A stretch of DNA of 64,000 bases from a virus, in the IMG/VR virus record IMGVR_UViG_3300042260_000483, positions 22,090-86,089 of that record. The stretch is one strand, 5' to 3'. Positions 4,471-62,357 of this stretch are shown in pieces. Positions within the stretch are counted from its first letter, which is position 1. Every line of letters begins with the position of its first letter. The position numbers and the translations under genes were made by a program. Under the pieces are notes generated by a model. The model had not been told where the DNA came from and did not search any database. It was given only the letters and a program-made list of their open reading frames with translations.

Positions 4471-5793
4471 TTAGTATAAAGTTTTGAAGTTTTTTTCGTT
4501 TGGATTTTTTAGTTTTTGTCTGATACGTTCATCTGATAAATTGAAGTATTTGGCTGCATCCTTAATTGATTGAAACTCAATACCTTCGCAAGAAATCGTT
4601 GGTAAATCTAAACGTATATTATTTTCCCACATAGATTTCATATCGGTATAACTAATATTTGTAATATCTACCCTTTTCCAATGTCTGTATTGTGGGTTAT
4701 TCGATTCTATTCGATTCCTAGCCATGGTTTCGGTGAAATCCCCACCTATCAAATCCGATATTTGTTTTGGATTTTCAAATGGAATACCATCGACTTCATA
4801 TTTTATATGCGGGTTCGTTTCTTCACCAATAATTTGCCAATCTTTGTATTTGGATTTGGTTGATTTACATCTACGTTCAACTTCGGTTGCAACCAATTCA
4901 TTCGGATTAATTGATATTGCTGCTTCTCTAAAAGAACGATATTGAATTCCATCAATTGAACAAATAAAATTATCCCCATTGGTAATCAGTTCCGTTGCTA
5001 TATCGGGGTTTCCTTTGACAAAAATTAAAATGTTTTGGTGTATAGATGCGGTTTTTCTGTTTCTATCAAAATATGTTTTGGCAACTCTACTTGCTTGATG
5101 CTGAGAGTTCATTAATATCATATCATTGTAAAAGGATAATCCCATTTTTTCACACATCTGAATAACTGATGGAACGAATCCTTTGTATTTACCAATTTTA
5201 TAATCACCGGTTTTAGATTGTTCTCTAATTTCAGATACAACTATACCCATAAATCGATTGGATTTGAGTTTAGAAACAGATTTTGTTAATATAGATTCCA
5301 ATGATGCTAAAAACGTATCATAATCCATGTTTGATATATCATTTGGATTATCTGAATAGATTTCTAAATCGTGGTATGGAGGACAGGTGAATACAAAATC
5401 AAATTCATCATTAAGTGTATCCAATGTATCATCACTATTTCCTACAATCCAATTTGGTTTGGATGATTGTAATTGATTTGCTTGTATTTGGGTTTCGGAT
5501 ATATCAATACCGGTATAATTAAATCCTAATTCTTCGGCAACAATACCTCTAACCGAACCTCCTGCGAATGGGTCTAATATTTTACCATCTTTCGGACAAA
5601 ACCAATCATACATCAATTCACATAAGAATGGATCAAAAACCGATACGTTTGTTTCGGATTCCCAAAATATAGTTTTAGATTGAGTTTCTTCTCTACCAAG
5701 TTCAGATTGGATTTGATGAGTTTGTAACCACCAATTTTTTCTATCTTTCCATTCCTTAGTACGAGTATCCAATATGGAAAATGGATAAATCAT
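4471..5793 (-). CDS. DNA amino-methyltransferase fused to three NUMOD1-like repeats
   Basis: ILDPFAGG (motif I) and FTCPPY (motif IV); C-terminal repeats IDGIQYRSFREAA / VDGIPFENPKQIS / CEGIEFQSIKDAA. Confidence 0.8.
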   Translation of the reverse strand: MIYPFSILDTRTKEWKDRKNWWLQTHQIQSELGREETQSKTIFWESETNVSVFDPFLCELMYDWFCPKDGKILDPFAGGSVRGIVAEELGFNYTGIDISETQIQANQLQSSKPNWIVGNSDDTLDTLNDEFDFVFTCPPYHDLEIYSDNPNDISNMDYDTFLASLESILTKSVSKLKSNRFMGIVVSEIREQSKTGDYKIGKYKGFVPSVIQMCEKMGLSFYNDMILMNSQHQASRVAKTYFDRNRKTASIHQNILIFVKGNPDIATELITNGDNFICSIDGIQYRSFREAAISINPNELVATEVERRCKSTKSKYKDWQIIGEETNPHIKYEVDGIPFENPKQISDLIGGDFTETMARNRIESNNPQYRHWKRVDITNISYTDMKSMWENNIRLDLPTISCEGIEFQSIKDAAKYFNLSDERIRQKLKNPNEKNFKTLY

Positions 5794-39032: not shown

Positions 39033-39300
39033 TTTCTTCTCTTTTTCTTTGTTCTTCTTCTTGTCTTAAACACCTTTCGATGGATAATTCAATTAACTTT
39101 GTAATATTTTCTAATTTATCAGGTTCATTTGGTGCGTTATACATCTCAAATACAGTCGATTCAACTTCTCTATCCGCAAGAACCATTACATGGTAATCTT
39201 CACATAATTCTCTATTTTTGTAAATAGCCTCACGAGATGATTCGATTTGTTGAGGTGACCAAGTTCCTGGCATTCTAATGATGAATATTGGTTTACTCAT
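39025..39300 (-). CDS. Hypothetical protein
   Basis: ORF overlapping its neighbours. Confidence 0.65.
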   Translation of the reverse strand: MSKPIFIIRMPGTWSPQQIESSREAIYKNRELCEDYHVMVLADREVESTVFEMYNAPNEPDKLENITKLIELSIERCLRQEEEQRKREENE

Positions 39301-40691
39301 TATCTTAGTTTATATAAGTTATATCTATCTTTTGGTTTCCAATTTTTCATTGCGGTTTCCATACCATCAACTAATGTTTTACACATATTAGTATTTGATA
39401 ACCCACCTTCGTTCAACATCCACTCTCTACCTTTCAATCCTGCTTGTTGACGTTCTTCTGGTGTTTTTTCATACCAATATCTCATTGCATCTGCAACTTC
39501 GTAAATATCCACCTTATCATCGATAATATATGGAGTTGGAACTGAACCTACTAATGTTTGAACTTTTGGGAATACTGGTTTAACCCATTCACCATGTGTA
39601 ACTTTAGATGCCCATTTTCTCCAATCATGCAATGAACCATGTTCTACATAATCATCTGCAGTGAATTCTTTACCATTTAGTTTAAATCCACACTGGTCTT
39701 GTAATCCACCTGTTACGTTTACAATAATAGGAGTTCCTGCCATTACAGATTCTGCAGTAACCAATCCAAATCCCTCATTACCTGCAATGTTAATTGTAAC
39801 ATCGGCAAGATTGTGAATTAAATTTAATTGATCTTGATTAACTCTGTTTGTTGAGAAAACTACATCATAATCTGGGCAAATGGTTTCTTTTACTGCATAT
39901 AAATCAGTTCCGTTTTCATCCACCGGTTGAGTATGCATTAATAAACATACTTTATCACGTTTTTCTTTTGGTAATCCATCTACGAATCTCTTATATGCCC
40001 AAATTACATCGGATGGTTGTTTACGTCTGATATTTCGGTTCATCCAAAATAAAACAAAATCGTATTCTTTATCTCCAAATAATTCTTTTTTAAATTCAGT
40101 AGGAACTTCAACTGGTTTGAATGTTTCTGAATTGATACCATGAGGAACATACGAAACTTGCCAATCTTCTAATGGTTTAGTGGTTGGAGTTTTAATTGCA
40201 CCTACGCGTTTTACAATACCATATGTTTGTTTTGAAATACATCCTAACCAATCACAACTTTCGTAATAATCTCTGTTGTATTTCGGGTCTGGCAAATCAT
40301 CCCAAATATGATAGAAGAAAATAGGAATGTTTTGTCTTAATTCTGCTTCCATTTCATATAACCATCTCCAATATCTCGGGTCTGTAAAATGAAGGATTGC
40401 ATCTGGTTGATGTTTCATTATAAGTTCTCTTAAAATGTTAGCATCACCATAACCACTCCACGGAACAATTTTAAGGGATGCATCTTCAACACCACTTATT
40501 TTACGTGCATCATCACCTAAATCAAGTTCTTTACCTTTGTCGGGGTGATTTATTGCGGCTCCCAATTGAACCCAATCGTATTTGTCAAATGTGCCAAAAA
40601 CTAATTCTTTTGATACGGTTGCGATACCAGATGACATTCTTAAGTCATCGGATAGTAAAAGAATCTTTTTTTTCTTTCTTACTTCTGTCAT
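39300..40691 (-). CDS. GT-B (GT4-like) glycosyltransferase
   Basis: SGIA, PHGIN, RNIRRK and NEGFGLVTAESVMAGTP. Confidence 0.88.
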   Translation of the reverse strand: MTEVRKKKKILLLSDDLRMSSGIATVSKELVFGTFDKYDWVQLGAAINHPDKGKELDLGDDARKISGVEDASLKIVPWSGYGDANILRELIMKHQPDAILHFTDPRYWRWLYEMEAELRQNIPIFFYHIWDDLPDPKYNRDYYESCDWLGCISKQTYGIVKRVGAIKTPTTKPLEDWQVSYVPHGINSETFKPVEVPTEFKKELFGDKEYDFVLFWMNRNIRRKQPSDVIWAYKRFVDGLPKEKRDKVCLLMHTQPVDENGTDLYAVKETICPDYDVVFSTNRVNQDQLNLIHNLADVTINIAGNEGFGLVTAESVMAGTPIIVNVTGGLQDQCGFKLNGKEFTADDYVEHGSLHDWRKWASKVTHGEWVKPVFPKVQTLVGSVPTPYIIDDKVDIYEVADAMRYWYEKTPEERQQAGLKGREWMLNEGGLSNTNMCKTLVDGMETAMKNWKPKDRYNLYKLR

Positions 40692-41875: not shown

Positions 41876-43135
41876 TTATTCCGAAAAAGATTCTACAAGC
41901 ATACTATCAAAATCAATCCCATTTAAACTATTAGCATTGGTTTTAAATAGGTCATCTAATTTTTTAGTAAATCCCACTACCATTTCAATTGGGTTATCAA
42001 TATTTTGGTCTGAATTGATAAAATTGATTAAGTTGTTTAACTCATCTATGGTTTTATTACTTGTTATAGTTTCCATGCCATCTTTTAAAAACTTAATAAC
42101 TCGTTCTTTTTCAGATTTACTGATATTATTTAAGGAAACGTTTACTGGGTTCCATGCATAATAAAAATCTATATGTTCGGTTGAAGTAATAAATTTATTA
42201 TCTGTCATAAATTTAATAAAATCAAATATATGATATACGTTCCAAATAGTAGTTGTGTATTGAAAATTATATTGCATTCCCATACCACCTGCGTAAGGTG
42301 ATTGTGGTGTAAAATACTTTTGTATTGTTTTTAAATTTTCTACAAATCTGTTATGCTGGAATCCTACTCTTTGATATTCACCAACTTCACCAATTCCATC
42401 ACAAGAGATTGAAAGAAATACTCTATCAAATCCTTCCCATAGTTCTACCAAACTTTGTTCATCATAGGTGATTACTGAAAGATTGGTATTATAGTGAATA
42501 CTTAAATGACGTTTATCACCCCAATGTTGTTCAATTACCGGCATATTATCATAAAGATGTTTCAATACCTTATAATGTTCCGGCATGATTAAAGGTTCTC
42601 CACCTGCAAAATAAAAACTTTTAATATTTTTTAAATGGGGAATTAAATCTTCAACAATAGTATCAGATACTTTCATCACCTTTGGTTTACCATTAGTATA
42701 ACCGGGTGATATTTTCCCATAATCTTCGAACCAATTTGATGAAAATTCATGACTACACATTCTACATTTGAAATTACATAGATTAGAAAATCTAATATCA
42801 ATATGTTGAAATTGAGTTTCTACTGAATAATCCTCATTTACATTTGGTAATTCCCATAAAGTATTATTGTTGAAATCATTACGAGGTGATACTCCGTTTA
42901 AATCTTCTTTTTTGTAGCAGACATCACAAACTTTATTACGTTTACCTTCTAACATATCTTTACGCAATTTCTTCATTTGAGGTGAATTAAATGCTCCATC
43001 GATTGTTAGTTGTTTCAAATCCAACGGCGTTTCAAACCCTCCTGCAATACAACATGGCTTCATCTCCCCCTTCGGTTCTGAATAGAGGTGAATGAATGGT
43101 AATATGCAGAATGTTTCCGTTTGTGGATTTTGCAT
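41876..43135 (-). CDS. Radical SAM protein with N-terminal SPASM/twitch-like domain
   Basis: CNFKCRMC and GGEP; N-terminal C..P...PCC...C..C. Confidence 0.88.
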   Translation of the reverse strand: MQNPQTETFCILPFIHLYSEPKGEMKPCCIAGGFETPLDLKQLTIDGAFNSPQMKKLRKDMLEGKRNKVCDVCYKKEDLNGVSPRNDFNNNTLWELPNVNEDYSVETQFQHIDIRFSNLCNFKCRMCSHEFSSNWFEDYGKISPGYTNGKPKVMKVSDTIVEDLIPHLKNIKSFYFAGGEPLIMPEHYKVLKHLYDNMPVIEQHWGDKRHLSIHYNTNLSVITYDEQSLVELWEGFDRVFLSISCDGIGEVGEYQRVGFQHNRFVENLKTIQKYFTPQSPYAGGMGMQYNFQYTTTIWNVYHIFDFIKFMTDNKFITSTEHIDFYYAWNPVNVSLNNISKSEKERVIKFLKDGMETITSNKTIDELNNLINFINSDQNIDNPIEMVVGFTKKLDDLFKTNANSLNGIDFDSMLVESFSE

Positions 43136-44696: not shown

Positions 44697-45767
44697 TTAC
44701 AATAAATGTGGTTTTGCTTCGTTAATACCCGATGTGGTTACAACTACATAAGGTGGTCTGAAATTTCGTAGAACATTAACACCTGCATATGATAAGGCAG
44801 ATTTAATACCATCTACCAAACCAGTTAAGATAAATTTTACACCACCTTTATATGGGATGGTAGTTGATTCACCTTCAATGTTTCGAACGTTCTGTCCGTT
44901 TGCTACTTTGGTTTCCAATGATGCAGAACCTCTATATCGTTTATATAAACCTTTTGGGGTTTCGATTATTTGACCGGGTGCTTCTTCAGTTCCTGCTAAG
45001 ATTGAACCTAACATTACGGAACTTGCACCTAATGATAATGCTTTTGCGATATCACCGGATGTTCTGATTCCCCCATCTGCCATTACTGGAGTTTTTGCAA
45101 CTCTGATAATATCTTCTAAACAACTTACATTTGGAACACCAAATCCAGTTTTTATTCTAGTCGTGCATAGTGAACCACCACCGATACCAACTCTCAATCC
45201 ATCTGCACCTGCATGTTCTAACATAATTGCTGCTTCTGAAGTTGCAATGTTTCCTGCAATAATATCAACGTTCTCATTTAGATTTTCCTTACACCACTTA
45301 ATCATATCTATGACATTTTTGTGGTGGCCGTGTGCAACATCTATAACTAAAATATTTGCACCTGCTTCAGTTACTCTCTTAGCTCGTTCCATATCAGAAG
45401 CCATTACTCCGATTGCAGCCATAATTGGAATTTGTTTAATTTCGGCATGCCAATCATCATACATAATTCCCCAATCTTCAAAAGGACCACCGAAACCTTC
45501 TCCGTAGATTCTATATTTTAGATTTTTGACTTGATTGACTTGTTCATCAATTGACATAAAACGATGAAGACATCCAACTCCTCCCATAAGGAACATTTTG
45601 AATGCCATTTCTTCTTCACAGACAGTATCCATTGGTGAAGCAACTAATGGATTTAATAATCCATATCTTCGAGATACCAATGTGTTTAATTTAATTGCCG
45701 TTCTTGTAGCAATTTCTGAATATTGTGGAACTAATTGGATGTCATCATAAGTGAGACTATAATTCAT
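44697..45767 (-). CDS. IMPDH/GMP reductase family protein (no CBS domain)
   Basis: SPMDTV, IDVAHGH, GIGGGSLCTT, ADGG and YRGSAS...EG. Confidence 0.88.
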   Translation of the reverse strand: MNYSLTYDDIQLVPQYSEIATRTAIKLNTLVSRRYGLLNPLVASPMDTVCEEEMAFKMFLMGGVGCLHRFMSIDEQVNQVKNLKYRIYGEGFGGPFEDWGIMYDDWHAEIKQIPIMAAIGVMASDMERAKRVTEAGANILVIDVAHGHHKNVIDMIKWCKENLNENVDIIAGNIATSEAAIMLEHAGADGLRVGIGGGSLCTTRIKTGFGVPNVSCLEDIIRVAKTPVMADGGIRTSGDIAKALSLGASSVMLGSILAGTEEAPGQIIETPKGLYKRYRGSASLETKVANGQNVRNIEGESTTIPYKGGVKFILTGLVDGIKSALSYAGVNVLRNFRPPYVVVTTSGINEAKPHLL

Positions 45768-48150: not shown

Positions 48151-49785
48151 TTAAGGGCGGTAGAATACAAATATCGGTTCGTATTTATAAGCTTTCCCAT
48201 TATGTTTAACAGAATTCTTAATACCACTTTTAGTTGGGTCTAATCCCACCATTCGTGTCATTAGCATTTTCAGTTTTCCTTTATACTCACACCCTAATTC
48301 TAATAATATTTTTTTAGAATCCTCTTCAAGTTCAAAATAAGTATCCTTACCCACTTTTATTGAGGCAATATTCCAAAGGATGTATCTATCATTCTTTGTG
48401 TATTCGAAGATGGTAGTTAAAGTTGGACGTAAAAAGTTTTCTCTCCAATCTTCATATTCACCATATGCTTTGAATGATTGTTTTTCATCTTGAGAATATT
48501 GTTCTCTGTTGAAGTATGGTGGAGATGTAAATGATAAATCTAATTTACCATTATATTTTTGAAATTTAGGATTGTGTTGAATTAACTCTGAACCATCTTG
48601 AAACAATTCATATGTATTACCTTGTTTGGTTACATCGAAGAACTTAGCAAATGAATCTGAAAAATCATCTACACATCTATCGTTGTAAAACTTAGCAACG
48701 TATTCATATCGAGATATACCTAACTCTGGAATAAAGTTATCAGGGTTCGGGTCTGTTCCAATATAGTGAGTTTTCTTACGAGAACTCATTGCACCTAATA
48801 TTCTACCACCCCATCCACTTGATGAATCATAAATATGAAGAGGTTCATCTTGTTCAATATGTGATGTGTAATTTTCGTAAATCCACTTTGCAGTTAATGC
48901 AGGGAAATTTACAGCAGGTTGGCCACATGATAATCTAAATACCTGTAATATCTTTGGAAAAATACCATCTGATTTATCATACCAACGAATTAGATAAAAG
49001 AATTTCTTAACTTTACCATCTGCCATTGTATAATCATCATCGATAGATTTTACGTTTGACATTTGTGTTGGAGTTAAAAATCCTTTATCAACACATTCTC
49101 TTAGTTGTTCTGCAGTTAAATACAGATTACCAAATCCAATATACTCATCATTGATAGTTCCGTAATTATCTAAAGTATCTTCTTTAACTTTAGCAATCAC
49201 AATATCATTATCAGACCATTTGCCTGTAAATACCTTGCCTTCTGAAACTTTTTGTATAAACTCTACACCATTTTCACCATCCCAAAATTCGTTTTCATCT
49301 TTCTTATTTACAATAGAACGTGACCAGGAATACATTGAATCCCTCTTCACTGCTCTTCTCATAATTTTAACAAATTGTTCTTCTAAATTCGGGTCAGCAA
49401 AATGGTCATAAATAGATAACCCACCATCTGCTGATTTACCAATTGAAATTTTGGTTTTCAACATAGTAGGAAAAAACTGATTTACAACCGATGCATCTTT
49501 ATTAAAGTTCTGAATGATTCCTAATGATTCATCATCACCACTTAAATCCTTTTCCCAAAAATTACAATCATTACCTTTTAGTTTTTTGAACGAATCGATA
49601 ATACCACTTTCATCTCTACCAATTACAGGTGGAGTTCCGGTTGTATCCCATTGCTCAGTAACTTCTTTGCGTAATAATCTAGCCCAATCCGTAAACTCAT
49701 CATCAGTCATAGATAATAACTGATGATAAGTTGTATTGGACTTGAATTCGGAAAACTTGCTTCGTTCGTAAAAGTATTTCGTCAT
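48151..49785 (-). CDS. DNA amino-methyltransferase-like protein
   Basis: YDSSSGWGGR, GTDPN and FTSPPYF. Confidence 0.8.
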   Translation of the reverse strand: MTKYFYERSKFSEFKSNTTYHQLLSMTDDEFTDWARLLRKEVTEQWDTTGTPPVIGRDESGIIDSFKKLKGNDCNFWEKDLSGDDESLGIIQNFNKDASVVNQFFPTMLKTKISIGKSADGGLSIYDHFADPNLEEQFVKIMRRAVKRDSMYSWSRSIVNKKDENEFWDGENGVEFIQKVSEGKVFTGKWSDNDIVIAKVKEDTLDNYGTINDEYIGFGNLYLTAEQLRECVDKGFLTPTQMSNVKSIDDDYTMADGKVKKFFYLIRWYDKSDGIFPKILQVFRLSCGQPAVNFPALTAKWIYENYTSHIEQDEPLHIYDSSSGWGGRILGAMSSRKKTHYIGTDPNPDNFIPELGISRYEYVAKFYNDRCVDDFSDSFAKFFDVTKQGNTYELFQDGSELIQHNPKFQKYNGKLDLSFTSPPYFNREQYSQDEKQSFKAYGEYEDWRENFLRPTLTTIFEYTKNDRYILWNIASIKVGKDTYFELEEDSKKILLELGCEYKGKLKMLMTRMVGLDPTKSGIKNSVKHNGKAYKYEPIFVFYRP

Positions 49786-52641: not shown

Positions 52642-55149
52642 TTAGAAACTAAAGAATTTTTCAGCAGTTTTTTGTTCACTCATTACCTCACCCCAACTTA
52701 ATGCATTGTAAAAATCTTGTAATTTACCTTTTAATTCTGCTTCGAAGATTCGATTATGATCTACATAAGTTGAAATGAAATCAACAATTTCTTTAGGGTC
52801 TTCGTAACCAGTAAATCCTAAACCATCAATTCCTAATGGATTGTTTTTAAGATACACCCACTTAATTTTATCACCATCCTTCATCGGTGAATATTTAAAT
52901 GGAGCGTTAAAATGTTTCAAACAATCATTGTAAAGAATTGCTGCTTTAACGTGTGCAGGAACTCCTTTTTCTAATTGAAATAATTGTCTTTTCTTTGGTA
53001 GATACTTTGATAAGTTTTTAACTGCAGAGTTCTTTGCAATTTCACTAACCGGTCTTTCCATCATACTCTTTTTGAATGCAAGAATAAATGCTGTGATTTC
53101 TTCCTCTGGTTTACTTCGTAGAATATCAATTAAGACAGTTCCCATACATTCCTGAAATGCTTTAGGGAATGATGAACGTTTAACATCCAATCCTTTAACA
53201 TCTAATTTATCAGTTGCAATACCATTGTTTGAAATAATCCATTGTGCATATCGTTTCTTTGCAATCCAAATACCTGCACGAGCAACGTATTCTTTTTTAA
53301 TTTCTAATCGGTGATTTTGAACATTAAAGAATTTATCACATAAAATATCGTAAAATTGATTTAGGTAATCTTGAACTTCACCTGCAATACCATCTACCAA
53401 CACAGCAACTTCACTATCTGGCATCTGTTTCCAATCTTTATGTCTATGGTCTAAAAGTGGAACTGCCGAGAAGAATACAGAATCGGTATCAATATAGATG
53501 TTTGAATCCACATCTTTCGTTCCTAATTCTTTGTTGTATTTGATGTTCCCCATATTCGCCGTGTTCTTAATAACCGTTTGGCCCGTAGTTGTAACTGCCT
53601 CCGCATTATCAACATCGTAAAACCGAAAGGCAGGAAGGCCAAGAACACCATAAAGAGAGTTAAGAAGAATTTTTTGAACCAACTGTCTTTTTCCGTAAAA
53701 GGCATATTTTTCTTTATCACCCTCCTGACCGTATTTCTTTTCCAATTTTCTAAATTCAACCCTTTCATTAAACCAAATATCTAATATCTCGGGAATACAT
53801 CCCATTTTGTCTTTACGATATAAAACTCCGTTTGATGATATTGTTAAATCACCTTCTTTAATATATCTATCTAAATTATCTCTGGAAATTCTATCATCAC
53901 CCATTTGGTAATAATCAACTTCTTTTTTCATAAACTTCTGCACATCCCAATCCTCAACTTTATTAACCTTAGTTTCAGGTGAAATGTTTAAGGTCATAAT
54001 GATTGATGGATATAGTGAGGTTAAGTCCAAGTCATACACCCAATCATATTTACCCACAATCGGGTCTTTTACATACGCACCGATAAACTTTTCTTCTCCT
54101 GCCTCTTTTAATGCTGCAAGTTTTTCTTTTCTATCTGCCGGTTTGTTTGGTGCAACCAATCCTTTACGTTTAAGAAAACATAACAATGCACCCTCCAAAT
54201 ATTTTGAAGAATATACGAAATCCTCATATGGAACGTGTCCTGCATGACATATACCTCGACATAAATCAATGAATTGTAATTTCTTATCTAACTCTACTAC
54301 GATTTCAACATCGACTAAGTTATACTCAATGAACTTTTCAATATCTTCATTAAATAAATCATCCAATGAACCTTGATACTCAATCTTACCTTTACCTAAT
54401 TCAATCGTTCCGATAGTATCCAAACGATAATTCGGTAATTCGTTATAGTTAAATTTCTTATATAATTCTAAATAATCTAAACAACTTACACCTGCAAAGA
54501 ACCAACGATTACGATATGGTGAATAGAACGCTTGGCCAATTGGTGATAATCTTTTTGCGTGTTGTTCTCCTAAGATACGTTTGATACGATTAAAAAGATA
54601 GGGAATATCGAAATTATCAATATTCCAACCAGTTAAAACATCGGGAGCAATTCCTTCATAAAGTTCTAAGAACTTCATACACAAATCTCTCTCATCTTTA
54701 AATGGTAAAATGATTGCCTTATCCGTTTTACGTTCGGTCATCTTACCTTTTTTATCCATAATCAATACCCAATACTGATTAGTGATATTATCTTGTAAAC
54801 CGATTGCAGTTAATTCATTCTTAGCTTCTTCAACATTCGGTAGACCAGATTCCATCTCAACCTCAATATCGAATGTCATTGTTACGATACCTTCAGATGG
54901 TAAATCAGATTCGGTATAAGTATCTACCAATACTCTGGTAGTTTCAGGTACATCTGATTCAAATAAATTAGGATCATCTCCTTTAAATTTGTAGATTTTG
55001 GTAAGTTTATCACCATAGATAGAACGGAATGTTCCATTCGTTGCAGGTTCATATGCGTAACGAGTGTATGGAAATGTTCTGTATCCTAAATGATCATCCC
55101 ATAAATGGACAGTATTTTTCTCTCGTTGAAAATAGACGTTTTTATACAA
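52642..55149 (-). CDS. Family B DNA polymerase
   Basis: Exo DIE, GWN..FD and YN..D; polymerase DLTSLYPS, KILLNSLYG, YIDTDS and KKRY. Confidence 0.97.
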   Translation of the reverse strand: MYKNVYFQREKNTVHLWDDHLGYRTFPYTRYAYEPATNGTFRSIYGDKLTKIYKFKGDDPNLFESDVPETTRVLVDTYTESDLPSEGIVTMTFDIEVEMESGLPNVEEAKNELTAIGLQDNITNQYWVLIMDKKGKMTERKTDKAIILPFKDERDLCMKFLELYEGIAPDVLTGWNIDNFDIPYLFNRIKRILGEQHAKRLSPIGQAFYSPYRNRWFFAGVSCLDYLELYKKFNYNELPNYRLDTIGTIELGKGKIEYQGSLDDLFNEDIEKFIEYNLVDVEIVVELDKKLQFIDLCRGICHAGHVPYEDFVYSSKYLEGALLCFLKRKGLVAPNKPADRKEKLAALKEAGEEKFIGAYVKDPIVGKYDWVYDLDLTSLYPSIIMTLNISPETKVNKVEDWDVQKFMKKEVDYYQMGDDRISRDNLDRYIKEGDLTISSNGVLYRKDKMGCIPEILDIWFNERVEFRKLEKKYGQEGDKEKYAFYGKRQLVQKILLNSLYGVLGLPAFRFYDVDNAEAVTTTGQTVIKNTANMGNIKYNKELGTKDVDSNIYIDTDSVFFSAVPLLDHRHKDWKQMPDSEVAVLVDGIAGEVQDYLNQFYDILCDKFFNVQNHRLEIKKEYVARAGIWIAKKRYAQWIISNNGIATDKLDVKGLDVKRSSFPKAFQECMGTVLIDILRSKPEEEITAFILAFKKSMMERPVSEIAKNSAVKNLSKYLPKKRQLFQLEKGVPAHVKAAILYNDCLKHFNAPFKYSPMKDGDKIKWVYLKNNPLGIDGLGFTGYEDPKEIVDFISTYVDHNRIFEAELKGKLQDFYNALSWGEVMSEQKTAEKFFSF

Positions 55150-55172: not shown

Positions 55173-55204
55173 CAAAGATACGAAAAAGATTTCGTATTTC
55201 CAAA
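55173..55204 (-). promoter_or_regulatory. Promoter TTTG-N20-TATCTTTG
   Basis: Consensus match. Confidence 0.75.
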
Positions 55205-55217
55205 TGATTTTGATGAT

Positions 55218-56708
55218 TTAATTATCAAAATCATTTTCATCAAATTCATCTAAAGTTATTTCATTTTCATTCAATGGTTTATCATTTTCATGAACTTCCT
55301 TATGACATGGTTTGTGTAATATAACCATATTGGCAACTTCGTTTGGACCTCCTTTAGAATATTTTTTAAGGTGGTGAGCCTCATCTCCAATATAAACTCT
55401 CTTACCACAATGAGGACAGATTGAATCCTGATTTAATAATACCTCCCAACGTTGTAATTTATTTATATTTCTGCTTAATTCTCGAAGTTGAATACCAGAC
55501 GATTCATTAAATTTTTCCAAATCGCCATTGACATTCTTTAATTGCTGTTGTAAATAAAAATCTGTTTCGTTTGATAATGTAATGATAACATCTTTATCAT
55601 CTCGTCTGGCCATATCAGTAATCCACCACGATTCTTTAACTCCGATAGTAACTTTACCTTTTGATTTCATAAAATATTTATACATTGTATTAAAATATAC
55701 AAATAATTTATCATAATCAGTAATCAATACATCATACTCTTTTCGTAAATCAATTAAAATATACATTAATAAACGAATTGAACCTTTACCATATTCTTTA
55801 ACTGCAGTTGGTGGTATTGCTTCAATGAATTTATCGATATCATTTATAGTCTTAGTAAATTTTAAATCTAATGATGATTTACAAAGGGATTCCAAATCTT
55901 TTTTATTTACTTTTTTTGGACCAATTTTATAATAATAATACAATCTAAGAATTAAATCAGCTGCCGTAAATCTATTAGTTTCAATTCCAACTTTATCAAA
56001 ATTGATAGTATCATTCCATTTTCGTGCTTGTTCGTATAACGCTGATTCGGTTGCTAATAAAATTTCGATATTCACTAAATTAGTGGAACCAGTATTCAAA
56101 TCTTTAAATAATTGTCTAATTTCTTCTTCAGTTCCCTCATATAATACAACTGGTAAATATGTTGAATAAAATACATCTTCGATTAATTCCTTACCATTAG
56201 GAAGTTCTTCTACGATTTGTTTATAGGTTAATCCGGAAATATCTACTTTTAATTTAAATTTGCCGGTAATAAAAGTTCCTTTACCTAACGCAAATTCGTT
56301 TGTAATAAATTTTATTAATGTAGACCAGCGTTGTTGACCATCTATAATTTCTAAAATATCCTCTTCTCTACGATATGAAAAATATAAGGGATTTGTTAAT
56401 TGATTGTTAAATATTGCCTTAATGATTGATTGTTTACCTTTGAGGTCTTTAACAAATTTTCTTTGAAATCTAGTTGGTATTACTATTTTATTTGAAATAT
56501 TTTCAAAATTGATAGTATCAATTTTATCACACTTACCCATTGTTAAATCAGCCAAAGACATACCATTGTTTTTATTAGGCTCGCCACGATACATACGAAT
56601 ATCAAATCCTTGTTTGACTTGTAAACGTTGTCTAATTGTCTTTCCACCTACATTTAATGTTAGTTCATCTGAAGTTAAATACCCTAATCCTGTTTTAAAT
56701 TTTTCCAT
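55218..56708 (-). CDS. DUF262 (GmrS-like) plus C-terminal HNH nuclease
   Basis: FQR, IIDGQQR and F..LN.G; CPHC...AHH...KGG.N...N..ILH..CH. Confidence 0.8.
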   Translation of the reverse strand: MEKFKTGLGYLTSDELTLNVGGKTIRQRLQVKQGFDIRMYRGEPNKNNGMSLADLTMGKCDKIDTINFENISNKIVIPTRFQRKFVKDLKGKQSIIKAIFNNQLTNPLYFSYRREEDILEIIDGQQRWSTLIKFITNEFALGKGTFITGKFKLKVDISGLTYKQIVEELPNGKELIEDVFYSTYLPVVLYEGTEEEIRQLFKDLNTGSTNLVNIEILLATESALYEQARKWNDTINFDKVGIETNRFTAADLILRLYYYYKIGPKKVNKKDLESLCKSSLDLKFTKTINDIDKFIEAIPPTAVKEYGKGSIRLLMYILIDLRKEYDVLITDYDKLFVYFNTMYKYFMKSKGKVTIGVKESWWITDMARRDDKDVIITLSNETDFYLQQQLKNVNGDLEKFNESSGIQLRELSRNINKLQRWEVLLNQDSICPHCGKRVYIGDEAHHLKKYSKGGPNEVANMVILHKPCHKEVHENDKPLNENEITLDEFDENDFDN

Positions 56709-56742: not shown

Positions 56743-56774
56743 CAAATATACAAATAATTTTTTACATTTCCAAA
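56743..56774 (-). promoter_or_regulatory. Promoter TTTG-N20-TATATTTG
   Basis: Consensus match. Confidence 0.75.
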
Positions 56775-56792: not shown

Positions 56793-57632
56793 TTAAAATT
56801 TATAAATTCCACCAACATTCCAAAATAAAATAGTTCCTTCAATTTCATCAATGTTTTCTTCTAACCACTTCCATTGTTTAATATCCCAAAATTGATTACA
56901 AGGGAATGGTGCTGAATAGCCTTCCAATCTATCCTCAAAAAGATATTCTGATTTTCTTATATTTAATGGAATTGGAATACCACTTCGTTTAAGTGTTTTG
57001 TTAATTGAACTTTCAGATGATACACACGTTGTCCAAACTTTTCTCTTTACTTTTGGAAAAAATTCTTTTAATTCTTCTCTATAATAACCTCTTACTAAAC
57101 CTGCTAAGGTCACACCACTACCCGATGATACAACTAAATTATCAAAATGTGTAAATGGTTGAATTCTATCTGCAAGGTAATCTTTGTAGAAATCGTGGTC
57201 AAAAGCGTAAGGTAGCATTTGCCATCCATTTTCAGATGCTATCTTCTTTAGTGAATTATACATAATTTGCATCATATTGGGTCTGATTGGATTCATATGA
57301 ACCTTTGGAAACATTTCCTTAATCATACTCAAATATTCTTGTGAGATTTTCTTTGAATCAGGATATGATACATGAAATTCGATATCCAAATCTTCACAAA
57401 TTGCTGCTAGTGCCCAACCTGTCCAACTTCCATCTACTGAAAGGTGGGTTAATGGTTTAGATTTATCTACATACTTTTTTACTAATTCGTATAATGCTGC
57501 TACTTTTCCCCACGGAGGTAATAGTTGTCCATCACCCATCAAATCATCTCTTTTTACCCACACTTCTCTACCTTTAATATGGTAAAGTTCTAATGGAGTA
57601 TCTTCGTTCAATCCTTTCAATCCTAAATCCAT
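56793..57632 (-). CDS. PLP-dependent enzyme, fold type II (ACC deaminase/D-cysteine desulfhydrase-like)
   Basis: TPLE...VWVKRDDL...GK, SSGSGVT and LFWNVG. Confidence 0.75.
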   Translation of the reverse strand: MDLGLKGLNEDTPLELYHIKGREVWVKRDDLMGDGQLLPPWGKVAALYELVKKYVDKSKPLTHLSVDGSWTGWALAAICEDLDIEFHVSYPDSKKISQEYLSMIKEMFPKVHMNPIRPNMMQIMYNSLKKIASENGWQMLPYAFDHDFYKDYLADRIQPFTHFDNLVVSSGSGVTLAGLVRGYYREELKEFFPKVKRKVWTTCVSSESSINKTLKRSGIPIPLNIRKSEYLFEDRLEGYSAPFPCNQFWDIKQWKWLEENIDEIEGTILFWNVGGIYKF

Positions 57633-59128
57633 TGGTATATCCCTCCTGCGTTTGATGTTAATTCTCCTTTCATTTTTCTATGAGAGAATCCATGTATTTT
57701 TTCAAAATTATCACCGATAACGTTAATCATTTTTTTTCTATTCTTAAAATTGATATTCGGGTCATTTAAGATAATTTCTTCTATGTATTGTTTAAAGTTA
57801 GTTCCTTTTTGGAATGCCCTCTTTTCTTGGTCTAATATCTCATCTGGTAATTTTCCTCTAAATGCATTTGCAAGTGGTAATTTCCATTGTCCACCTTTAC
57901 AAAGAAATTCATCAGTTAAGTTCGTAGTATAGTTTAAGAAATCAGTATCAAAGAATGGACATCTTAATTCGATTGTTCCATAATTCATAAAGATAGTATT
58001 TCCTCTTAGTAAATTTCCGTAGTATTGTTTTTCAAATAATTTTTTACGGACATCACTCCAATCTGGTTTCTTACTGAACATACGAAAAGTTCCATATGAA
58101 CCATATGATTCATCACTACCCTCACCACTAAATGCTACTTTGATTCCATCACTTGCCATTTGTTCTGCAATGAATGATTGTAAAATACCTACTTCCATTT
58201 GAACGGTTGATGGGTATTCAATTACTTTAATTGAATCTAAGAATCTTTGTTTGATTATCTCATCGTTTTTAGGCACGAATACCTCAATCAATTCTACTCC
58301 TAAATACTTTGCACATACTCTTGCCTTTTGTAAATCTTTTGAGGTTTCATCAAATGCAATGGTATATGCTTTTAAGTTAGGAATTCGTTGTGAAAGTAAA
58401 TAAGTAATAACTGCAGAATCAATACCACCACTCAAAGATGTTGCAATCGGAACATCTGCCAATAATCTTTTATCTACCGCACGTTCTAATAATTTAAAAG
58501 TAGTATCTCTAACCTCATCATGTGATTCAACTTTCGTTGGTTCGGATGAAAATTGGAAATAATAATTAGAATGAATAGTAAGTTTATCAGTATCTAAATC
58601 AATTTCAACTAAACTATTTTTTGGAACAAATTTAATATCCGAAGTTTTATGCTGAGTAGTAATTGCTTTCAATTCACTTGCTACAATATATTGGTTTGTA
58701 TTATAGATGTAAAGTGGTAATTTACCAACCCAATCTCTTGATAATATCAATTTATTATTATCGTAGATGATGAATGAAAACATTCCATCTAATCTTTTTA
58801 ATTCACCTTCTTTATATAAAAATAGAATAATTTCTGAATCTGAATTAGATTTGAATACATACCCACGTTCTTCGTATTCTTTACGCAACGTTGGGTAATT
58901 CCAAATCTCACCATTTACAACTAATTGAACACCATCGTATTCCATCGGTTGATTACCTAATGGAGATGTATCATTAATTGATAAACGATTATGACCTAAA
59001 ATAATATGTTTATCTCCATACTTAAATTCTCTAATACCGCGATTATCTCTACCACGATGTTCGATAGTTTCAAGCATTTCATTGACATCTTCTTTATTAT
59101 AACCTATGGTTGCTACGATTCCACACAT
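57623..59128 (-). CDS. Asparagine synthetase B-like glutamine amidotransferase
   Basis: N-terminal MCGI, HRG.D, RLSI, NGEIWN, LSGGIDS and SGEGSDE. Confidence 0.9.
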   Translation of the reverse strand: MCGIVATIGYNKEDVNEMLETIEHRGRDNRGIREFKYGDKHIILGHNRLSINDTSPLGNQPMEYDGVQLVVNGEIWNYPTLRKEYEERGYVFKSNSDSEIILFLYKEGELKRLDGMFSFIIYDNNKLILSRDWVGKLPLYIYNTNQYIVASELKAITTQHKTSDIKFVPKNSLVEIDLDTDKLTIHSNYYFQFSSEPTKVESHDEVRDTTFKLLERAVDKRLLADVPIATSLSGGIDSAVITYLLSQRIPNLKAYTIAFDETSKDLQKARVCAKYLGVELIEVFVPKNDEIIKQRFLDSIKVIEYPSTVQMEVGILQSFIAEQMASDGIKVAFSGEGSDESYGSYGTFRMFSKKPDWSDVRKKLFEKQYYGNLLRGNTIFMNYGTIELRCPFFDTDFLNYTTNLTDEFLCKGGQWKLPLANAFRGKLPDEILDQEKRAFQKGTNFKQYIEEIILNDPNINFKNRKKMINVIGDNFEKIHGFSHRKMKGELTSNAGGIYQWI

Positions 59129-59129
59129 A

Positions 59130-59828
59130 TTATCTATTTAATACTTCTAATAACTTATGAGTTTTTTTAGTTTCATCATTCATCTTACCGATATGACAAG
59201 AACATGCTAAAACTGATACCTTTCCTAATTCCATATTACTTTCTTTCGCTAAGAATTTACCCATCTCAACTAACGCAGTATAATCTGCATAACCTGATTT
59301 CGATACTCTATTTGAACGAATGATTGATGTTAGGTAGATTTTACCATTACGAGGTTTAATATCAATTGCTAACATACAAGGTTGTGAGTATGGATTTCTA
59401 GCATCTCTACTCGGGTCAAAGATAATCAATTCACATCTTTTAACTGCTTTACCAGTTTTTAAGATTTTAATTACGTTTTCTACCTGATTGAATGTTCCTT
59501 GCCATGCAACCATTCTACCCCAATATGAATCACTCCATTTATCTTTGATAAATTTATATTCCAATCCTTCTTCTGCTTGAAAAAATGGACTATCTGAAAC
59601 AAATGGTTGTGGTTCTAAGAATGTTACGGTCTTTGCATAATCAATTCTATCATCACCCATAATTTCTCTAAAATGAGGGTCAAACCAATCATCAGATTGA
59701 AATTCTGTGATTTCAGTCATCACATTTAATTCTTCGGTTAAATCACCTACTTTTACTCCGTTTGCAATAAGATGTTTAGATACCTTTACCCATGCATCGC
59801 CGGGAGATGTTGCTTCAATTACTGTCAT
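59130..59828 (-). CDS. Thymidylate synthase/dCMP hydroxymethylase-like protein
   Basis: PC catalytic motif (QPCM), RSN.......ADY and SCHI. Confidence 0.75.
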   Translation of the reverse strand: MTVIEATSPGDAWVKVSKHLIANGVKVGDLTEELNVMTEITEFQSDDWFDPHFREIMGDDRIDYAKTVTFLEPQPFVSDSPFFQAEEGLEYKFIKDKWSDSYWGRMVAWQGTFNQVENVIKILKTGKAVKRCELIIFDPSRDARNPYSQPCMLAIDIKPRNGKIYLTSIIRSNRVSKSGYADYTALVEMGKFLAKESNMELGKVSVLACSCHIGKMNDETKKTHKLLEVLNR

Positions 59829-59858
59829 ATTATTTTATTTATAGTTTTAGTATCCTAA

Positions 59859-59890
59859 CAAAGATACTATATTTTTTTAACATTTCCAAA
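59859..59890 (-). promoter_or_regulatory. Promoter TTTG-N20-TATCTTTG heading the TS-AsnB-PLP operon
   Basis: Consensus match. Confidence 0.75.
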
Positions 59891-61063
59891 CTAAAATTGA
59901 AAAAATTTATTTAACATTTTTTTATTTACAATATTATTATTACGCATTTCTGAAATAGGTTGTAATAATTCATCATATCCTTCTATTGGGTTTCCAACAT
60001 ATTCATGACAATATGATGCTCTTAATTTCAACATTGTATATGCATTTTTTTGTAAATTTTTATCAGTTCGGATTTTACCATTAAATGGTGTTGGTTTCCA
60101 ATTTGGATTATTTTCTCTATATTCACCTAATGCAGGATTTACTGTTTTAGTATAATATTTTGCATTAGTATTTTTTATAATTCCTGCACAAAATTCAGAT
60201 ACTTTACTACCAATACCCATTCCTTGATAATCTGGATTAACTACAATCCTGCTTTCTCTAAAAGATTTTTCTACACTATTTCTACCAATATGTCTTCCAA
60301 TTACATTTATTGCAACGGGGTTACCATTCCATTCAAACAATAAAAAAATGTAAGTGTTATTTACATTTTCTGTTAGATAATGATGTTTTTTGAAGAAATC
60401 CCAAGCTTTAGGTTCAACCCTACTAATTTGAAGTTCGATGTTTGGTCTTCCTTGCCGAAGCCATTCACCTCTTTCGAGTGTGCCTCCTTTTTGGGGTGAA
60501 AGTGTCCAATCAGGCATCAACCACTGCATTATATCGTTATGACACGATGCTAGAATAATCTTTTTATTTTCTCTACGAATATATTTTTGTAATGCAAACG
60601 ACATTGCCTTTGCAACATCTCTATCTACTACTGATGTATATTCATCTATTAAAATAGTATCGCCATCTTTTGCAGAAGAAACTAAATATGCTAATTCAGC
60701 TCTATATTGTTCTCCGTTACTTAATAAGTGAAAAGGACGTAACCATGTTGGTATGGATGATAATCCCATTGATGTTAAAACCTTTCCTGCTTCACTCGGT
60801 TCTAACCAATCAAAATTTGAAATTAATGATTTTTCACTATCAAACTGAATTTTATTGATACCACCTAATTCTTTTAATATAGTAGATTTACCACTACCAC
60901 TGCTACCATAAATGACACCAATATTCCAATCAAATGAGTTTAGAGATGAAATATCCATTGGAATAATTACTCTCGTTTCCTCTTTGTTTTGAATATCAAA
61001 TGTATCATACACATATTGTGTGTATTTATCATTTTTGATTGAATGTGATAATTCTATTTGCAT
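59891..61063 (-). CDS. ABC-type ATPase fused to a GNAT acetyltransferase
   Basis: GSSGSGKST, LSNGE, IDEY and SCH; HHYL and RIVVNPDYQGMGIG. Confidence 0.85.
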   Translation of the reverse strand: MQIELSHSIKNDKYTQYVYDTFDIQNKEETRVIIPMDISSLNSFDWNIGVIYGSSGSGKSTILKELGGINKIQFDSEKSLISNFDWLEPSEAGKVLTSMGLSSIPTWLRPFHLLSNGEQYRAELAYLVSSAKDGDTILIDEYTSVVDRDVAKAMSFALQKYIRRENKKIILASCHNDIMQWLMPDWTLSPQKGGTLERGEWLRQGRPNIELQISRVEPKAWDFFKKHHYLTENVNNTYIFLLFEWNGNPVAINVIGRHIGRNSVEKSFRESRIVVNPDYQGMGIGSKVSEFCAGIIKNTNAKYYTKTVNPALGEYRENNPNWKPTPFNGKIRTDKNLQKNAYTMLKLRASYCHEYVGNPIEGYDELLQPISEMRNNNIVNKKMLNKFFQF

Positions 61064-61067
61064 TTAA

Positions 61068-62300
61068 TTACATTTTACGAAATATCCATATCGGCTCACA
61101 GAATGTTTTATCTTTGGCTTCTTCGTTCTTTTTCAATTCTTCTTCGGAATATCTTTCTTCATCACCATCTATAATCATTCCTGCCCCGGCAGAACCCGGT
61201 CTTTTGGCCATTTCCATACCCAAACACCCTTGATACTCTGCACCTTCTAAAGTGGAGATAAAATCGTTCATAGGGTTGGTAATTTCTTGTTGTCCTTTAC
61301 CATCACCTTTTGATGATGCGTAGACATCTGCAATGTTCACTGCTAAGTAACCACCTTTTTTAATAGTAGGCCAAACATTAGCAATTGTCTTATGTAAGAA
61401 GTTTTTATTCCATTCATCGATTGTTTTATATCGAACCCAACTTTGAGTATCATCGTATGAATATCTCTCTACGTTGAAATATGGAGGTGAGCTGAATACA
61501 ATATCAAAATATTCTTTATACTCACTCAAATCTAAATCTTCAGCAGGGGATTCATAAAAGGTTGATTTCTTTTTGGTTTCAAAAAATCCATTATGTTTTT
61601 CGTAAAAATCTGCTTGTTCTCTATAAATTGGATGATTTTCAGTACGAGGGTCTATACCCACAAAATGTTCTCCAAATTCAGATGCATAAAAACCACATAA
61701 TCTATCACCCCATCCTGCAGAAATATCTAATACGTTTTTTGCTTCAACGTAATCATATAATACTTTTGCAACATTTGGTTTAAATTGCGAACAAATATAC
61801 TTTCGTAGGGATAAGCAAGTTCTTAGTGTGTTTTTGGTAATTTCATCAAACTTTAAGGTATATAATCCACCCATAAGTGAGAACATAAAATCAGGGTTAT
61901 TCCAAGTACGGTATGGCCCAGGCGAGACCGTTCCATCTACACTCCAACGATTTGCTTGTTGAAAGTAATTAGATGCGGCGTTACCTGTGTTAATACGTCT
62001 TACAAATTGATTTTTTCCTTGAAATGTTAAGGGATATCGAGATTCGGCTGCCTTTCGTGGCACCCAATCACCTTCTGTAAAAAGTTCTTGCCATCTGAAA
62101 CCTTTTAGTTTAAGATATTCTTTTCTTGCTTCTTCTTCGGTGATATCAGCATATGGGATTTCATATGTTGCTGCTACTCTTGCTAGAGATTCTTTTACAT
62201 CTTCTCTATCAAATGTTTTTTTGATGTAACTCCATTCTTCTTTGTTAATATGAAGATACGGGAGCATATCATAGAATTTATCAAAGTATTCTAAATACAT
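61068..62300 (-). CDS. DNA amino-methyltransferase-like protein (paralog of 48151-49785)
   Basis: LDISAGWGDR, GIDP, FSSPPYF..E.YS and EPIW.F. Confidence 0.8.
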   Translation of the reverse strand: MYLEYFDKFYDMLPYLHINKEEWSYIKKTFDREDVKESLARVAATYEIPYADITEEEARKEYLKLKGFRWQELFTEGDWVPRKAAESRYPLTFQGKNQFVRRINTGNAASNYFQQANRWSVDGTVSPGPYRTWNNPDFMFSLMGGLYTLKFDEITKNTLRTCLSLRKYICSQFKPNVAKVLYDYVEAKNVLDISAGWGDRLCGFYASEFGEHFVGIDPRTENHPIYREQADFYEKHNGFFETKKKSTFYESPAEDLDLSEYKEYFDIVFSSPPYFNVERYSYDDTQSWVRYKTIDEWNKNFLHKTIANVWPTIKKGGYLAVNIADVYASSKGDGKGQQEITNPMNDFISTLEGAEYQGCLGMEMAKRPGSAGAGMIIDGDEERYSEEELKKNEEAKDKTFCEPIWIFRKM

Positions 62301-62325: not shown

Positions 62326-62357
62326 CAAATATACGAAAAATAATTCACATTTCCAAA
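62326..62357 (-). promoter_or_regulatory. Promoter TTTG-N20-TATATTTG
   Basis: Full consensus match. Confidence 0.75.

Follow-up and report, generated by a model that had tools for sequence, protein, structure and literature searches.

The last 64 kb of an 86-kb viral contig in IMG/VR (record IMGVR_UViG_3300042260_000483; CheckV completeness 43%), a stretch of 64,000 nucleotides that we call the window, carries an operon of three genes that encode a thymidylate synthase (TS)-like enzyme, an AsnB-type glutamine amidotransferase and a pyridoxal phosphate (PLP) enzyme. We consider it probable that this operon belongs to a conserved phage system, combinatorial in its gene content and made up of four parts, that hypermodifies cytosine in the phage's own DNA, the fourth part being a DNA-methyltransferase-like protein with an SPPY motif. 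The observations behind this reading are homologies, active-site residues, linkage across related loci, gene fusions, the absence of the thymidine-pathway genes 5-HMUDK and AADT, and a ThyA that relatives encode separately. An initial annotation of the window had already proposed a cytosine-hypermodification operon. Its gene identities, the Asp and Arg that it singled out in the TS-like enzyme, its link to phage M6 and its view that the combination is unpublished all stood, but the unit it drew is too small, glutamine use is not fixed and the hydroxymethylase signature is absent. The four parts, with lengths in amino acids (aa), are:

59130-59828, minus strand: TS-like enzyme (P0001, 232 aa), with the nucleophile Cys151, R171-S172, Asp182, Arg174 and Ser148
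57623-59128, minus strand: AsnB-type glutamine amidotransferase (P0002, 501 aa), with an N-terminal Cys, the PP-loop SGGIDS and SGEGSDE
56793-57632, minus strand: fold-type-II PLP enzyme of the M6 gp52 family (P0003, 279 aa), with Lys43 and a C-terminal PFPCN.FWD.K.W.WL
61068-62300, minus strand: SPPY DNA-methyltransferase-like protein (410 aa), with motif I VLDISAGWGDR and motif IV SSPPYF

Two scans of IMG/VR found 64 loci related to the module, each on a different contig and 60 of them informative; with one locus from a metagenome-assembled genome (MAG) there are 65. They fall into these classes:

TS-like, AsnB and PLP genes: 42 loci
TS-like gene, gene for a protein with an Asn-synthase domain only, and PLP gene: 14 loci
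radical S-adenosylmethionine (SAM) gene but no PLP gene in the stretch: 4 loci (L048, L069, L070, L074)
cut short by the end of the contig, at most 2 kb from the TS-like gene: 4 loci

Neighbourhood conservation, which had been suggested as a check, is borne out by a gene order that recurs in 56 of the 60 informative loci, and the linkage spans TS-like identities of 34%-98% and G+C contents of 28-53%. The partners of the TS-like gene are an Asn-synthase-type ATP enzyme; a PLP enzyme, a B12-type radical SAM enzyme or both; and one to six SPPY methyltransferase-like paralogues per locus. The functional unit of three genes first envisaged therefore keeps its order but is larger than was thought, with the methyltransferase-like paralogues added and a radical SAM enzyme replacing or joining the PLP enzyme. 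Mutual exclusivity of the PLP and radical SAM enzymes was considered and rejected because one locus (L021) has radical SAM, AsnB and PLP genes together; its TS-like protein and that of the window share 81% identity. Taken together, the constant parts form the pattern of a nucleobase hypermodification cluster, though not of the known one.

The contigs with the module come from freshwater and drinking-water metagenomes, and the TS-like family is nearly confined to viral contigs. Among 185,579 species genomes we found a single family match, on a MAG contig with the order methyltransferase-like, TS-like, PP-loop, radical SAM. This sole match in the genome collection (L120, CAIOZA010000025.1) lies on a 44-kb contig binned in an Ignavibacteria MAG; the contig is probably phage-derived, and its hint of a host is weak at best.

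The TS-like protein scores 21.3 bits against Pfam PF00303, under the gathering cut-off of 24.3, and some of its relatives have a precomputed match to this family; PHROG TS families match it at 1e-8 to 1e-9 (phrog_5131, E 1.7e-9). Its AlphaFold model (pLDDT 93.6) belongs to the TS-fold superfamily: all of the ten best Foldseek matches have the TS fold, 396 matches reach E <= 0.001, and nearly all rows listed are TS-fold proteins, while one is 4f2v, a designed serine hydrolase. The best structural matches are enzymes of cytosine nucleotides, ahead of true thymidylate synthases, and comprise AfhB, the deoxycytidine monophosphate (dCMP) hydroxylase of HY126 (9iqu; E 3.8e-12, template modelling (TM) score 0.69), the CMP hydroxymethylase MilA (TM 0.70) and then T4 dCH. 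MilA is also the best PDB match by sequence (2.7e-16). The catalytic cysteine is retained, as had been claimed; Cys151 is invariant, together with P150, R171 and S172, in 29 of 29 family sequences, and these residues align with T4 gp42 and ThyA. In total, 228 protein clusters match at E <= 0.001, and the best 120 of these 228 reach down to 66% identity. Because a profile search of 1.84 billion representatives returned just 14 matches at E <= 1e-30, we regard the family as small and distinct. A near-identity search of the operon against cultured phages gave no match, and tblastn of the TS-like protein against phages returned 16 records, all below 31% identity, with no cultured carrier among them.

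We read the signature columns of this enzyme by aligning it to T4 gp42 and to canonical ThyA proteins from two complete relatives. The segment RSNRVSKSGYADY of the TS-like protein aligns with RSNDVVFGFRNDY of T4 gp42, and both have Asp where the phages' ThyA has Asn. The initial annotation had given this T4 alignment; checked against T4 gp42 itself, it is correct, with the cytosine-type Asp and the odd Arg both present. The three columns read as follows:

Column N177 (E. coli numbering), base-selecting: Asn in ThyA, Asp in T4 gp42, Asp182 in the family (invariant, 29 of 29)
Column D169: Asp in ThyA, Asp in T4 gp42, Arg or Ala in the family (Arg174 here)
Column L143, three residues before the Cys: Leu in ThyA, Asp in T4 gp42, Ser, Gly or Lys in the family (Ser148 here)

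N177D confers dCMP preference, an acidic residue at L143 marks hydroxymethylases, in which Asp at D169 is kept, and D169N is diagnostic for flavin-dependent 5-hydroxy-dCMP synthases (PMC13326640). At the three columns, the ThyA of these phages reads N, D and L, a signature that the TS-like family does not share. It has the N177D of the dCMP/CMP hydroxymethylases, but neither the acid at L143 nor the Asp at D169, and in place of the D169N of the 5-hydroxy-dCMP synthases it has Arg or Ala throughout (9iqu has RSQN). The idea of a dCMP hydroxymethylase-type TS homologue thus agrees with the base-selecting Asp and fails at the other two columns. Since the signatures of hydroxymethylases and of hydroxylases are both missing from the family, the label "dCMP hydroxymethylase-like" may name the wrong chemistry; the active-site signature is that of no characterised activity.

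In a maximum-likelihood tree of 56 rows that we selected, the 22 rows of the TS-like family form one group (support 100/99), and a separate group holds T4 gp42, RB69 gp48, ThyA and P0170-type proteins. Three of the four complete relatives encode a canonical ThyA (245-316 bits) besides the TS-like gene, so the latter does not serve the phage as dTMP synthase. In the closest complete relative, ThyA (L056; G001:62463-63575) has an insertion of ~35 residues relative to the ThyA of another (G002), in the strand following the catalytic Cys. The nearest non-family relatives of the TS-like profile are proteins of 460-490 aa (P0157-P0160 and similar) that combine MtrA-like, TS-like and pterin-binding DUF4346 domains; the domain scan covered P0157, and the others were assigned by length and match position.

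The family shares with T4 gp42 the TS fold, the Cys nucleophile, R-S-N, the base-selecting Asp and proximity to a polymerase gene (gene 42 adjoins gene 43). It differs in that the two proteins are 17% identical, Arg or Ala stands at the folate-site Asp, Ser, Gly or Lys replaces the acid before the Cys, the tree groups are separate, and the TS-like gene has no glucosyltransferase partner. MilA, the CMP 5-hydroxymethylase of mildiomycin biosynthesis (5b6d, 5jnh), is cytosine-specific and is the closest solved protein by sequence profile, but it keeps Asp at both columns (RAND...D, and Asp three before the Cys) and sits in a bacterial antibiotic cluster. The 5-hydroxy-dCMP synthases RB69 gp48, DLP3 gp80 and HY126 AfhB (PMC13326640; PDB 9iqu, 9iqc) are likewise TS-like proteins of ~230 aa with the base-selecting Asp, and AfhB is the best structural match; unlike them, the family has no equivalent of D169N and L143E, its partners are not glycosyltransferases, and RB69 gp48 groups with T4 gp42.

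The AsnB homologue has the makings of a competent glutamine-dependent carboxylate-amidating enzyme. Its class-II glutaminase domain (GATase_7; E 1.9e-31, 109 bits against a cut-off of 25) and its PP-loop synthetase domain (Asn_synthase; E 1.8e-41, 143 bits against a cut-off of 21) are both clear. The N-terminus, MCGI, supplies the Cys nucleophile, HRG.D, NGEI.N and SD.E align with AsnB, and the alignment with E. coli AsnB (1ct9; E 9e-41) retains SGGxDS, SGEGSDE and the R..PF.D block. The protein shares both domains and the catalytic motifs with E. coli AsnB and passes the broad TIGR01536 model (291.7 against 267.1). It differs in scoring only 257 bits against the AsnB equivalog NF006949, whose cut-off is 499, in its place within a modification operon and in being exchangeable with proteins that have no glutaminase: at 14 of the 60 informative loci the gene encodes an Asn-synthase-domain-only protein of ~300 aa. 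These proteins are related to one another and have no BLAST similarity to the C-domain of AsnB, and their nearest Atlas clusters are of the viral "asparagine synthase family". Because the glutaminase half is absent from these 14 loci, glutamine-derived ammonia is not a fixed feature, and with the glutaminase domain dispensable, the fixed step is the ATP-dependent one. The AsnB-type glutamine-dependent amidation first proposed accordingly suits the window, where both domains are intact, but does not extend to every locus.

The PLP enzyme had been linked to M6, and BLASTP (26% identity over the full length, E 1e-23) and hhalign (99.8%, E 1.2e-29, 258 columns) both identify it as a homologue of M6 gp52. 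The two share a C-terminal motif, PFPCN.F.D.K.W.WL, and Lys43, invariant in 16 of 16 sequences, aligns with the PLP lysine of gp52, K36 (PMC8989533). M6 gp52 was shown experimentally to be a PLP decarboxylase that converts C-alpha-glycinylthymine in DNA to 5-(2-aminoethyl)uracil (PMC8989533). When we searched 50,697 phage records with tblastn, the only clear relatives were "threonine dehydratase" genes of 63 M6/YuA-type phages that infect Pseudomonas, Bordetella, Sphaerotilus and Stenotrophomonas; in M6 the matching gene is that of gp52, and ViI gp226 is not among the 63 records. The enzyme scores 21.8 bits against Pfam PALP, under the cut-off of 35, and matches phrog_7093 at E 1e-23. Cellular PALP enzymes match it only marginally; a PDB sequence search (E 0.34) and NCBIfam gave nothing beyond marginal matches to ACC (1-aminocyclopropane-1-carboxylate) deaminase. 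For all three operon genes, family matches agree with the identities first assigned (TS-like, AsnB-type and PLP enzyme). A complex prediction for the TS-like and PLP enzymes from alignments that we built scored 0.00, which bears on binding neither way.

The radical SAM enzyme found at some loci is nearest to B12-binding radical SAM families, and a protein of this family had no BLAST similarity to M6 gp53. It is fused to a TS-like domain in P0130 and at L070, and at L048 a radical SAM domain fused to an N6_N4 DNA methyltransferase domain directly follows the TS-like gene. No PLP gene is present in the L048 record, which is 79% complete. Complete genomes of the window type have no radical SAM gene of the module, save one weak unrelated match in G002. 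By Pfam match, the window itself encodes a radical SAM protein unrelated to the module's family (41876-43135), a glycosyltransferase of the GT4 type found in conflict systems (39300-40691) and a GMP-reductase/IMPDH-type protein (44697-45767), all 11-17 kb from the module.

In the methyltransferase-like paralogues, motif I (D192-S-x-G-W-G-D-R) and motif IV (S271-P-P-Y-F), the motifs of N6/N4 methyltransferases, are invariant in 19 of 19 sequences, and the model of the 410-aa protein has the class-I methyltransferase fold. Among Atlas clusters, viral N6_N4_Mtase families lie nearest, with PF01555 in 29-90% of members; PF01555 does not match the 410-aa protein but does match the related domain of the L048 fusion (50 bits), and the methyltransferase regions of the two proteins align. 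A PDB sequence search of the 410-aa protein returned nothing, and Foldseek returned only generic class-I methyltransferases, Trm11 on top, which distinguish neither N4 from N6 nor methyl from aminocarboxypropyl transfer. Copies flank the TS-like gene at 51 of the 60 informative loci, and in four complete genomes (276-376 kb) 12 of the 14 profile matches lie within 10 kb of it; because of this placement and the alignment with the L048 fusion, we count the protein as the fourth component. In one of these genomes (G003, 376 kb, the record of L050), six of seven paralogues surround the TS-like gene at ~268-296 kb, a striking local gene-family expansion.

The alternative that survives best is that the three-gene operon is a self-contained pathway and that the SPPY paralogues are ordinary sequence-specific N4-cytosine/N6-adenine DNA methyltransferases in a variable anti-restriction region. 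Their motifs I and IV are intact and typical, their Atlas neighbours are those of such enzymes, Foldseek gives only generic class-I methyltransferases, and the 410-aa gene has a promoter-like motif of its own. Moreover, the copy number ranges from 1 to 7, as in diversifying anti-restriction genes, and 9 of the 60 informative loci have no copy in the stretch examined. Yet a coincidental neighbour should not be fused to a radical SAM domain directly after the TS-like gene, as at L048, nor gather within 10 kb of that gene in genomes of 276-376 kb, nor keep its linkage at TS-like identities from 34% to 98% and G+C contents from 28% to 53%. We therefore rate this explanation as unlikely, although it is a serious contender.

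In microcin C biosynthesis (MccD/MccE), a methyltransferase-fold enzyme moves the 3-amino-3-carboxypropyl group of SAM and is paired with a PLP decarboxylase, MccE, which has a different PLP fold. This pairing offers a possible logic for the methyltransferase-like and PLP proteins, although MccD (5fcd), which is among the Foldseek matches of the 410-aa model (E 1.1e-5), scores no better than dozens of generic methyltransferases.

Clusters for nucleoside antibiotics also hold radical SAM, PLP, amide-forming and methyltransferase enzyme classes. The module could on these grounds make a free modified nucleotide or nucleoside as mildiomycin-type clusters do, for example an inhibitor or anti-defence molecule, or could modify RNA. 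Consistent with this, no solved protein is closer in sequence than MilA, mononucleotides are the substrates of TS-fold enzymes, and we found no deoxynucleoside monophosphate (dNMP) kinase or dCTPase. Against it stand the PLP enzyme, which is clearly related only to the DNA-acting gp52 family, the partner methyltransferase-like proteins, which belong to DNA N6/N4 families, the position of the module among genes for ribonucleotide reductase (RNR), thioredoxin and PolB, and the near-confinement of the family to viral contigs, with one match in 185,579 species genomes. A small-molecule or RNA product is, in our judgement, improbable.

The thymidine pathway of M6 and ViI comprises a TS homologue, 5-HMUDK, AADT, the radical SAM protein gp53 and the PLP enzymes gp52/gp226 (PMC8989533, PMC5889632). 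The module resembles it in starting from a TS homologue, in its gp52-family PLP enzyme, in the possible addition of a radical SAM enzyme (as at L021) and in its combinatorial gene content. A variant of this pathway, in which the TS-like enzyme hydroxymethylates dUMP and the PLP enzyme finishes an amino-acid adduct derived from 5-hmdU, would account for the gp52 homology and would be in line with the amidotransferases and amidoligases without an assigned role that adjoin 5-HMUDK/AADT clusters, beside the thymidine hypermodification genes (PMC8989533). It seems less probable still. The base-selecting column holds an invariant Asp, not Asn, and the top structural matches are cytosine enzymes. Furthermore, PF18748 (5-HMUDK) and PF18724 (AADT) had no match in any of five records (the window contig and four complete relatives), and M6 gp51 and gp54 as queries found nothing in the same records. 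The module also differs from M6 and ViI in that the Asn-synthase-type enzyme and the SPPY methyltransferase-like proteins are constant and in that its radical SAM enzyme is of the B12-binding type rather than gp53-like. Finally, the genes might be auxiliary metabolic ones with no connection to each other, coding for an extra thymidylate synthase, for asparagine synthetase and for a dehydratase of threonine or serine. Such genes would suit the TIGR01536 match and the relatives' database names of "thymidylate synthase" and "threonine dehydratase", but are very improbable given the tight order at 56 of 60 informative loci, the exchange of AsnB for a BLAST-dissimilar Asn-synthase-domain protein without a glutaminase, the fusion of the TS-like gene to a radical SAM domain, the real ThyA encoded elsewhere, and a PLP enzyme that is under the PALP cut-off and strongly gp52-like.

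For the cytosine system that we favour, we infer the substrate, the order of the steps, the level (DNA or nucleotide) of steps two to four and the final structure as follows. In the first step, Cys151 of the TS-like enzyme would attack C6 of a cytosine mononucleotide, most likely dCMP, and a C5 substituent would be installed before replication. The loop after R-S-N-R is polar in the TS-like protein (SKSGYAD), and its ThyA counterpart consists of hydrophobic residues that presumably contact the folate. Because this SKSGY stretch adjoins a folate-site Asp that has become Arg or Ala, the co-substrate is probably not used in the way ThyA or T4 gp42 uses methylene-tetrahydrofolate. In the second step, the Asn-synthase-type PP-loop enzyme would adenylate a side-chain carboxylate and convert it to an amide, with nitrogen from glutamine in the window phage and from free ammonia or another amine in relatives that have no glutaminase. 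The gp52-like PLP enzyme would then act on an alpha-amino-acid-type side chain of the base, most likely with loss of CO2 to give an amine; in other lineages the B12-type radical SAM enzyme would replace or join it. Lastly, the SPPY methyltransferase-like paralogues may act on DNA in a sequence-specific manner, by methylation at N4 of the modified cytosine or at the side-chain amine, or by transfer of another SAM-derived group. The product could be an amide- or amine-bearing C5-dC.

A narrower version, to which we give somewhat less than even weight, is that the module builds charged or amide-bearing cytosine side chains independently of the kinase and AADT. A folate-independent TS-like enzyme would put a carboxylate- or amino-acid-type carbon on C5 of dCMP, the Asn-synthase-type enzyme would amidate it, the PLP enzyme and/or the B12 radical SAM enzyme would reshape it, and the SPPY proteins would add a methyl or 3-amino-3-carboxypropyl group. 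Other schemes were considered and dropped, namely amination of O4 of a uracil nucleotide by the AsnB homologue, attack of a TS-like carbanion on an acyl-adenylate or a PLP-bound aminoacrylate, and lactam formation with N4.

Several points weigh against the hypermodification of cytosine. The carriers are uncultured phages known from assembled contigs. The TS-like protein is under the Pfam cut-off and has none of the sets of residues that define each characterised activity; its chemistry may be a different one, and its substrate may be a deoxy or even a ribo nucleotide. At 26% identity to gp52, the PLP enzyme may differ from it in reaction type. Moreover, amidation and decarboxylation would both claim the same alpha-carboxylate, except where two carboxylates are present on the side chain or the PLP enzyme catalyses some other reaction. 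One locus, L070, has no PP-loop gene within 8 kb, and the methyltransferase-like genes may be no more than ordinary orphan enzymes that happen to lie in a variable part of the genome. A T4 gp1-like dNMP kinase was found in none of the five records (a single-sequence search and a weak negative), a dUTPase_2-type dCTPase was not found either (a single-family search, likewise weak), and a thymidylate kinase is present in one of the five. A pre-replicative route through modified dCTP would thus have to run without its usual helpers, an objection of little weight as it comes from single searches. A dCMP deaminase is encoded in three of the five records, and the closest complete relative has a small MazG-like gene 5 kb from the module.

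To our knowledge, pyrimidine hypermodifications start from a 5-hydroxymethyl or 5-hydroxy pyrimidine and are extended either by kinases and amino-acid transferases or by glycosyltransferases. The module points to a third logic, on cytosine, that joins ATP-dependent amide formation to SAM-dependent DNA enzymes. It probably represents phage pyrimidine hypermodification, with a fair chance of new chemistry, and most likely decorates cytosines by a route that has not yet been described. The combination of genes had been thought not to be a described pathway, and we likewise found no published description of it, although the supplementary contig maps and TS-homologue lists of PMC8989533 and PMC13326640, which were outside our coverage, might include members. 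The module is abundant, with 228 protein clusters and 64 viral loci at 28-53% G+C. If our reading is true, it would provide new natural DNA bases, new enzymes for site-specific derivatisation of DNA and a new strategy for evading restriction, and it would explain a sequencing and restriction blind spot for environmental phages. The version independent of the kinase and AADT would, if true, imply that jumbo phages of fresh and marine waters have a whole family of cytosine bases yet to be described.

The window has a G+C content of ~31%, its minus strand holds nearly all long open reading frames (ORFs), and complete relatives of this freshwater jumbo phage have genomes of 276-376 kb. ORF coordinates agree with the layout given before: three minus-strand genes with a 1-nt gap between the TS-like and AsnB genes (59129) and a 10-base overlap of the AsnB and PLP genes (57623-57632). 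The operon was also placed near the DNA polymerase, correctly, as a T4-type PolB (52642-55149; best cultured relative Microcystis phage Mel-JY01, 51% identity) is one gene away. On the 5' side of the operon are genes for an ABC-ATPase/GNAT fusion, the 410-aa protein, a small helix-turn-helix protein, thioredoxin and RNR, and on the 3' side genes for a DUF262(GmrSD_N)-HNH protein, PolB and GroEL, so that the module stands between RNR/thioredoxin and PolB. Further features of this region are:

59891-61063, minus strand: ABC-ATPase/GNAT fusion (390 aa) between the methyltransferase-like and TS-like genes, accessory rather than core
48151-49785, minus strand: 544-aa protein whose C-terminal half matches the methyltransferase-like profile, of uncertain module membership
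59874-59890, minus strand: promoter-like motif TTTGGAAATGTTAAAAA, then TAtcTTTG, an exact match 5' of the TS-like gene
62341-62357, minus strand: third copy of the promoter-like motif, with 2 mismatches, 5' of the methyltransferase-like gene

Exact copies of TTTGGAAATGT lie at 59874-59890, 5' of the TS-like gene, and at 56758-56774, 3' of the PLP gene. We read the motif as a putative Bacteroidota-type -33/-7 promoter, and its three copies would fit three transcription units. A single promoter for the operon, as first assumed, is in line with the exact motif 5' of the TS-like gene, but a generic sigma-70 scan (54 sites against 46 +/- 7 expected) and a terminator count (1 against 2.8 expected) are not above chance. 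The 544-aa protein has no Pfam match. The methyltransferase-like profile matches it at G000:70252-71001 (E 1.8e-41), and it is conserved ~8 kb from the module in relatives, where partial matches occupy an equivalent position.

Four metatranscriptome libraries from three studies have contigs on the module. In one of them, a relative's contigs run from PLP to AsnB (1806 nt) and over the stretch AsnB, TS-like, ABC/GNAT and methyltransferase-like (3282 nt), although DNA carry-over is possible. RNA-library contigs join 59847 to 61101 and 59890 to 61180, skipping the ABC-ATPase/GNAT gene; of 52 related loci, L002 alone has that gene. The GmrSD-like HNH gene is likewise confined to a single one of them (L047, 36% identity), and its interval 55200-56645 had no coverage in any of the four RNA-library runs. 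As each is present at one locus in 52, and the ABC-ATPase/GNAT gene is also skipped by the RNA-library contigs, both genes look like insertions.

The ABC-ATPase/GNAT protein joins a soluble ABC-type ATPase to a GNAT domain, matches phrog_11143 (E 3.7e-126) and occurs in 92 records, among them unrelated phages such as Tenacibaculum pT24 (58% identity), Lactococcus P335 and Burkholderia phiE255. The GmrSD-like gene (55218-56708; DUF262 (GmrSD_N) and HNH nuclease-like) has its own copy of TTTGGAAATGT and may encode either a mobile endonuclease or a phage-borne nuclease that senses modification. Elsewhere in the window, an N6_N4 DNA methyltransferase (4471-5793) matches the I-TevI DNA-binding domain near its C-terminus, at 23.0 bits where the cut-off is 27 (whole-protein E 7.2e-5). 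At one related locus (L046:14864-17603), PolB is matched in two pieces (residues 1-543 and 541-835) that lie ~180 bases apart, and this could be a split gene or the mark of an intervening element.

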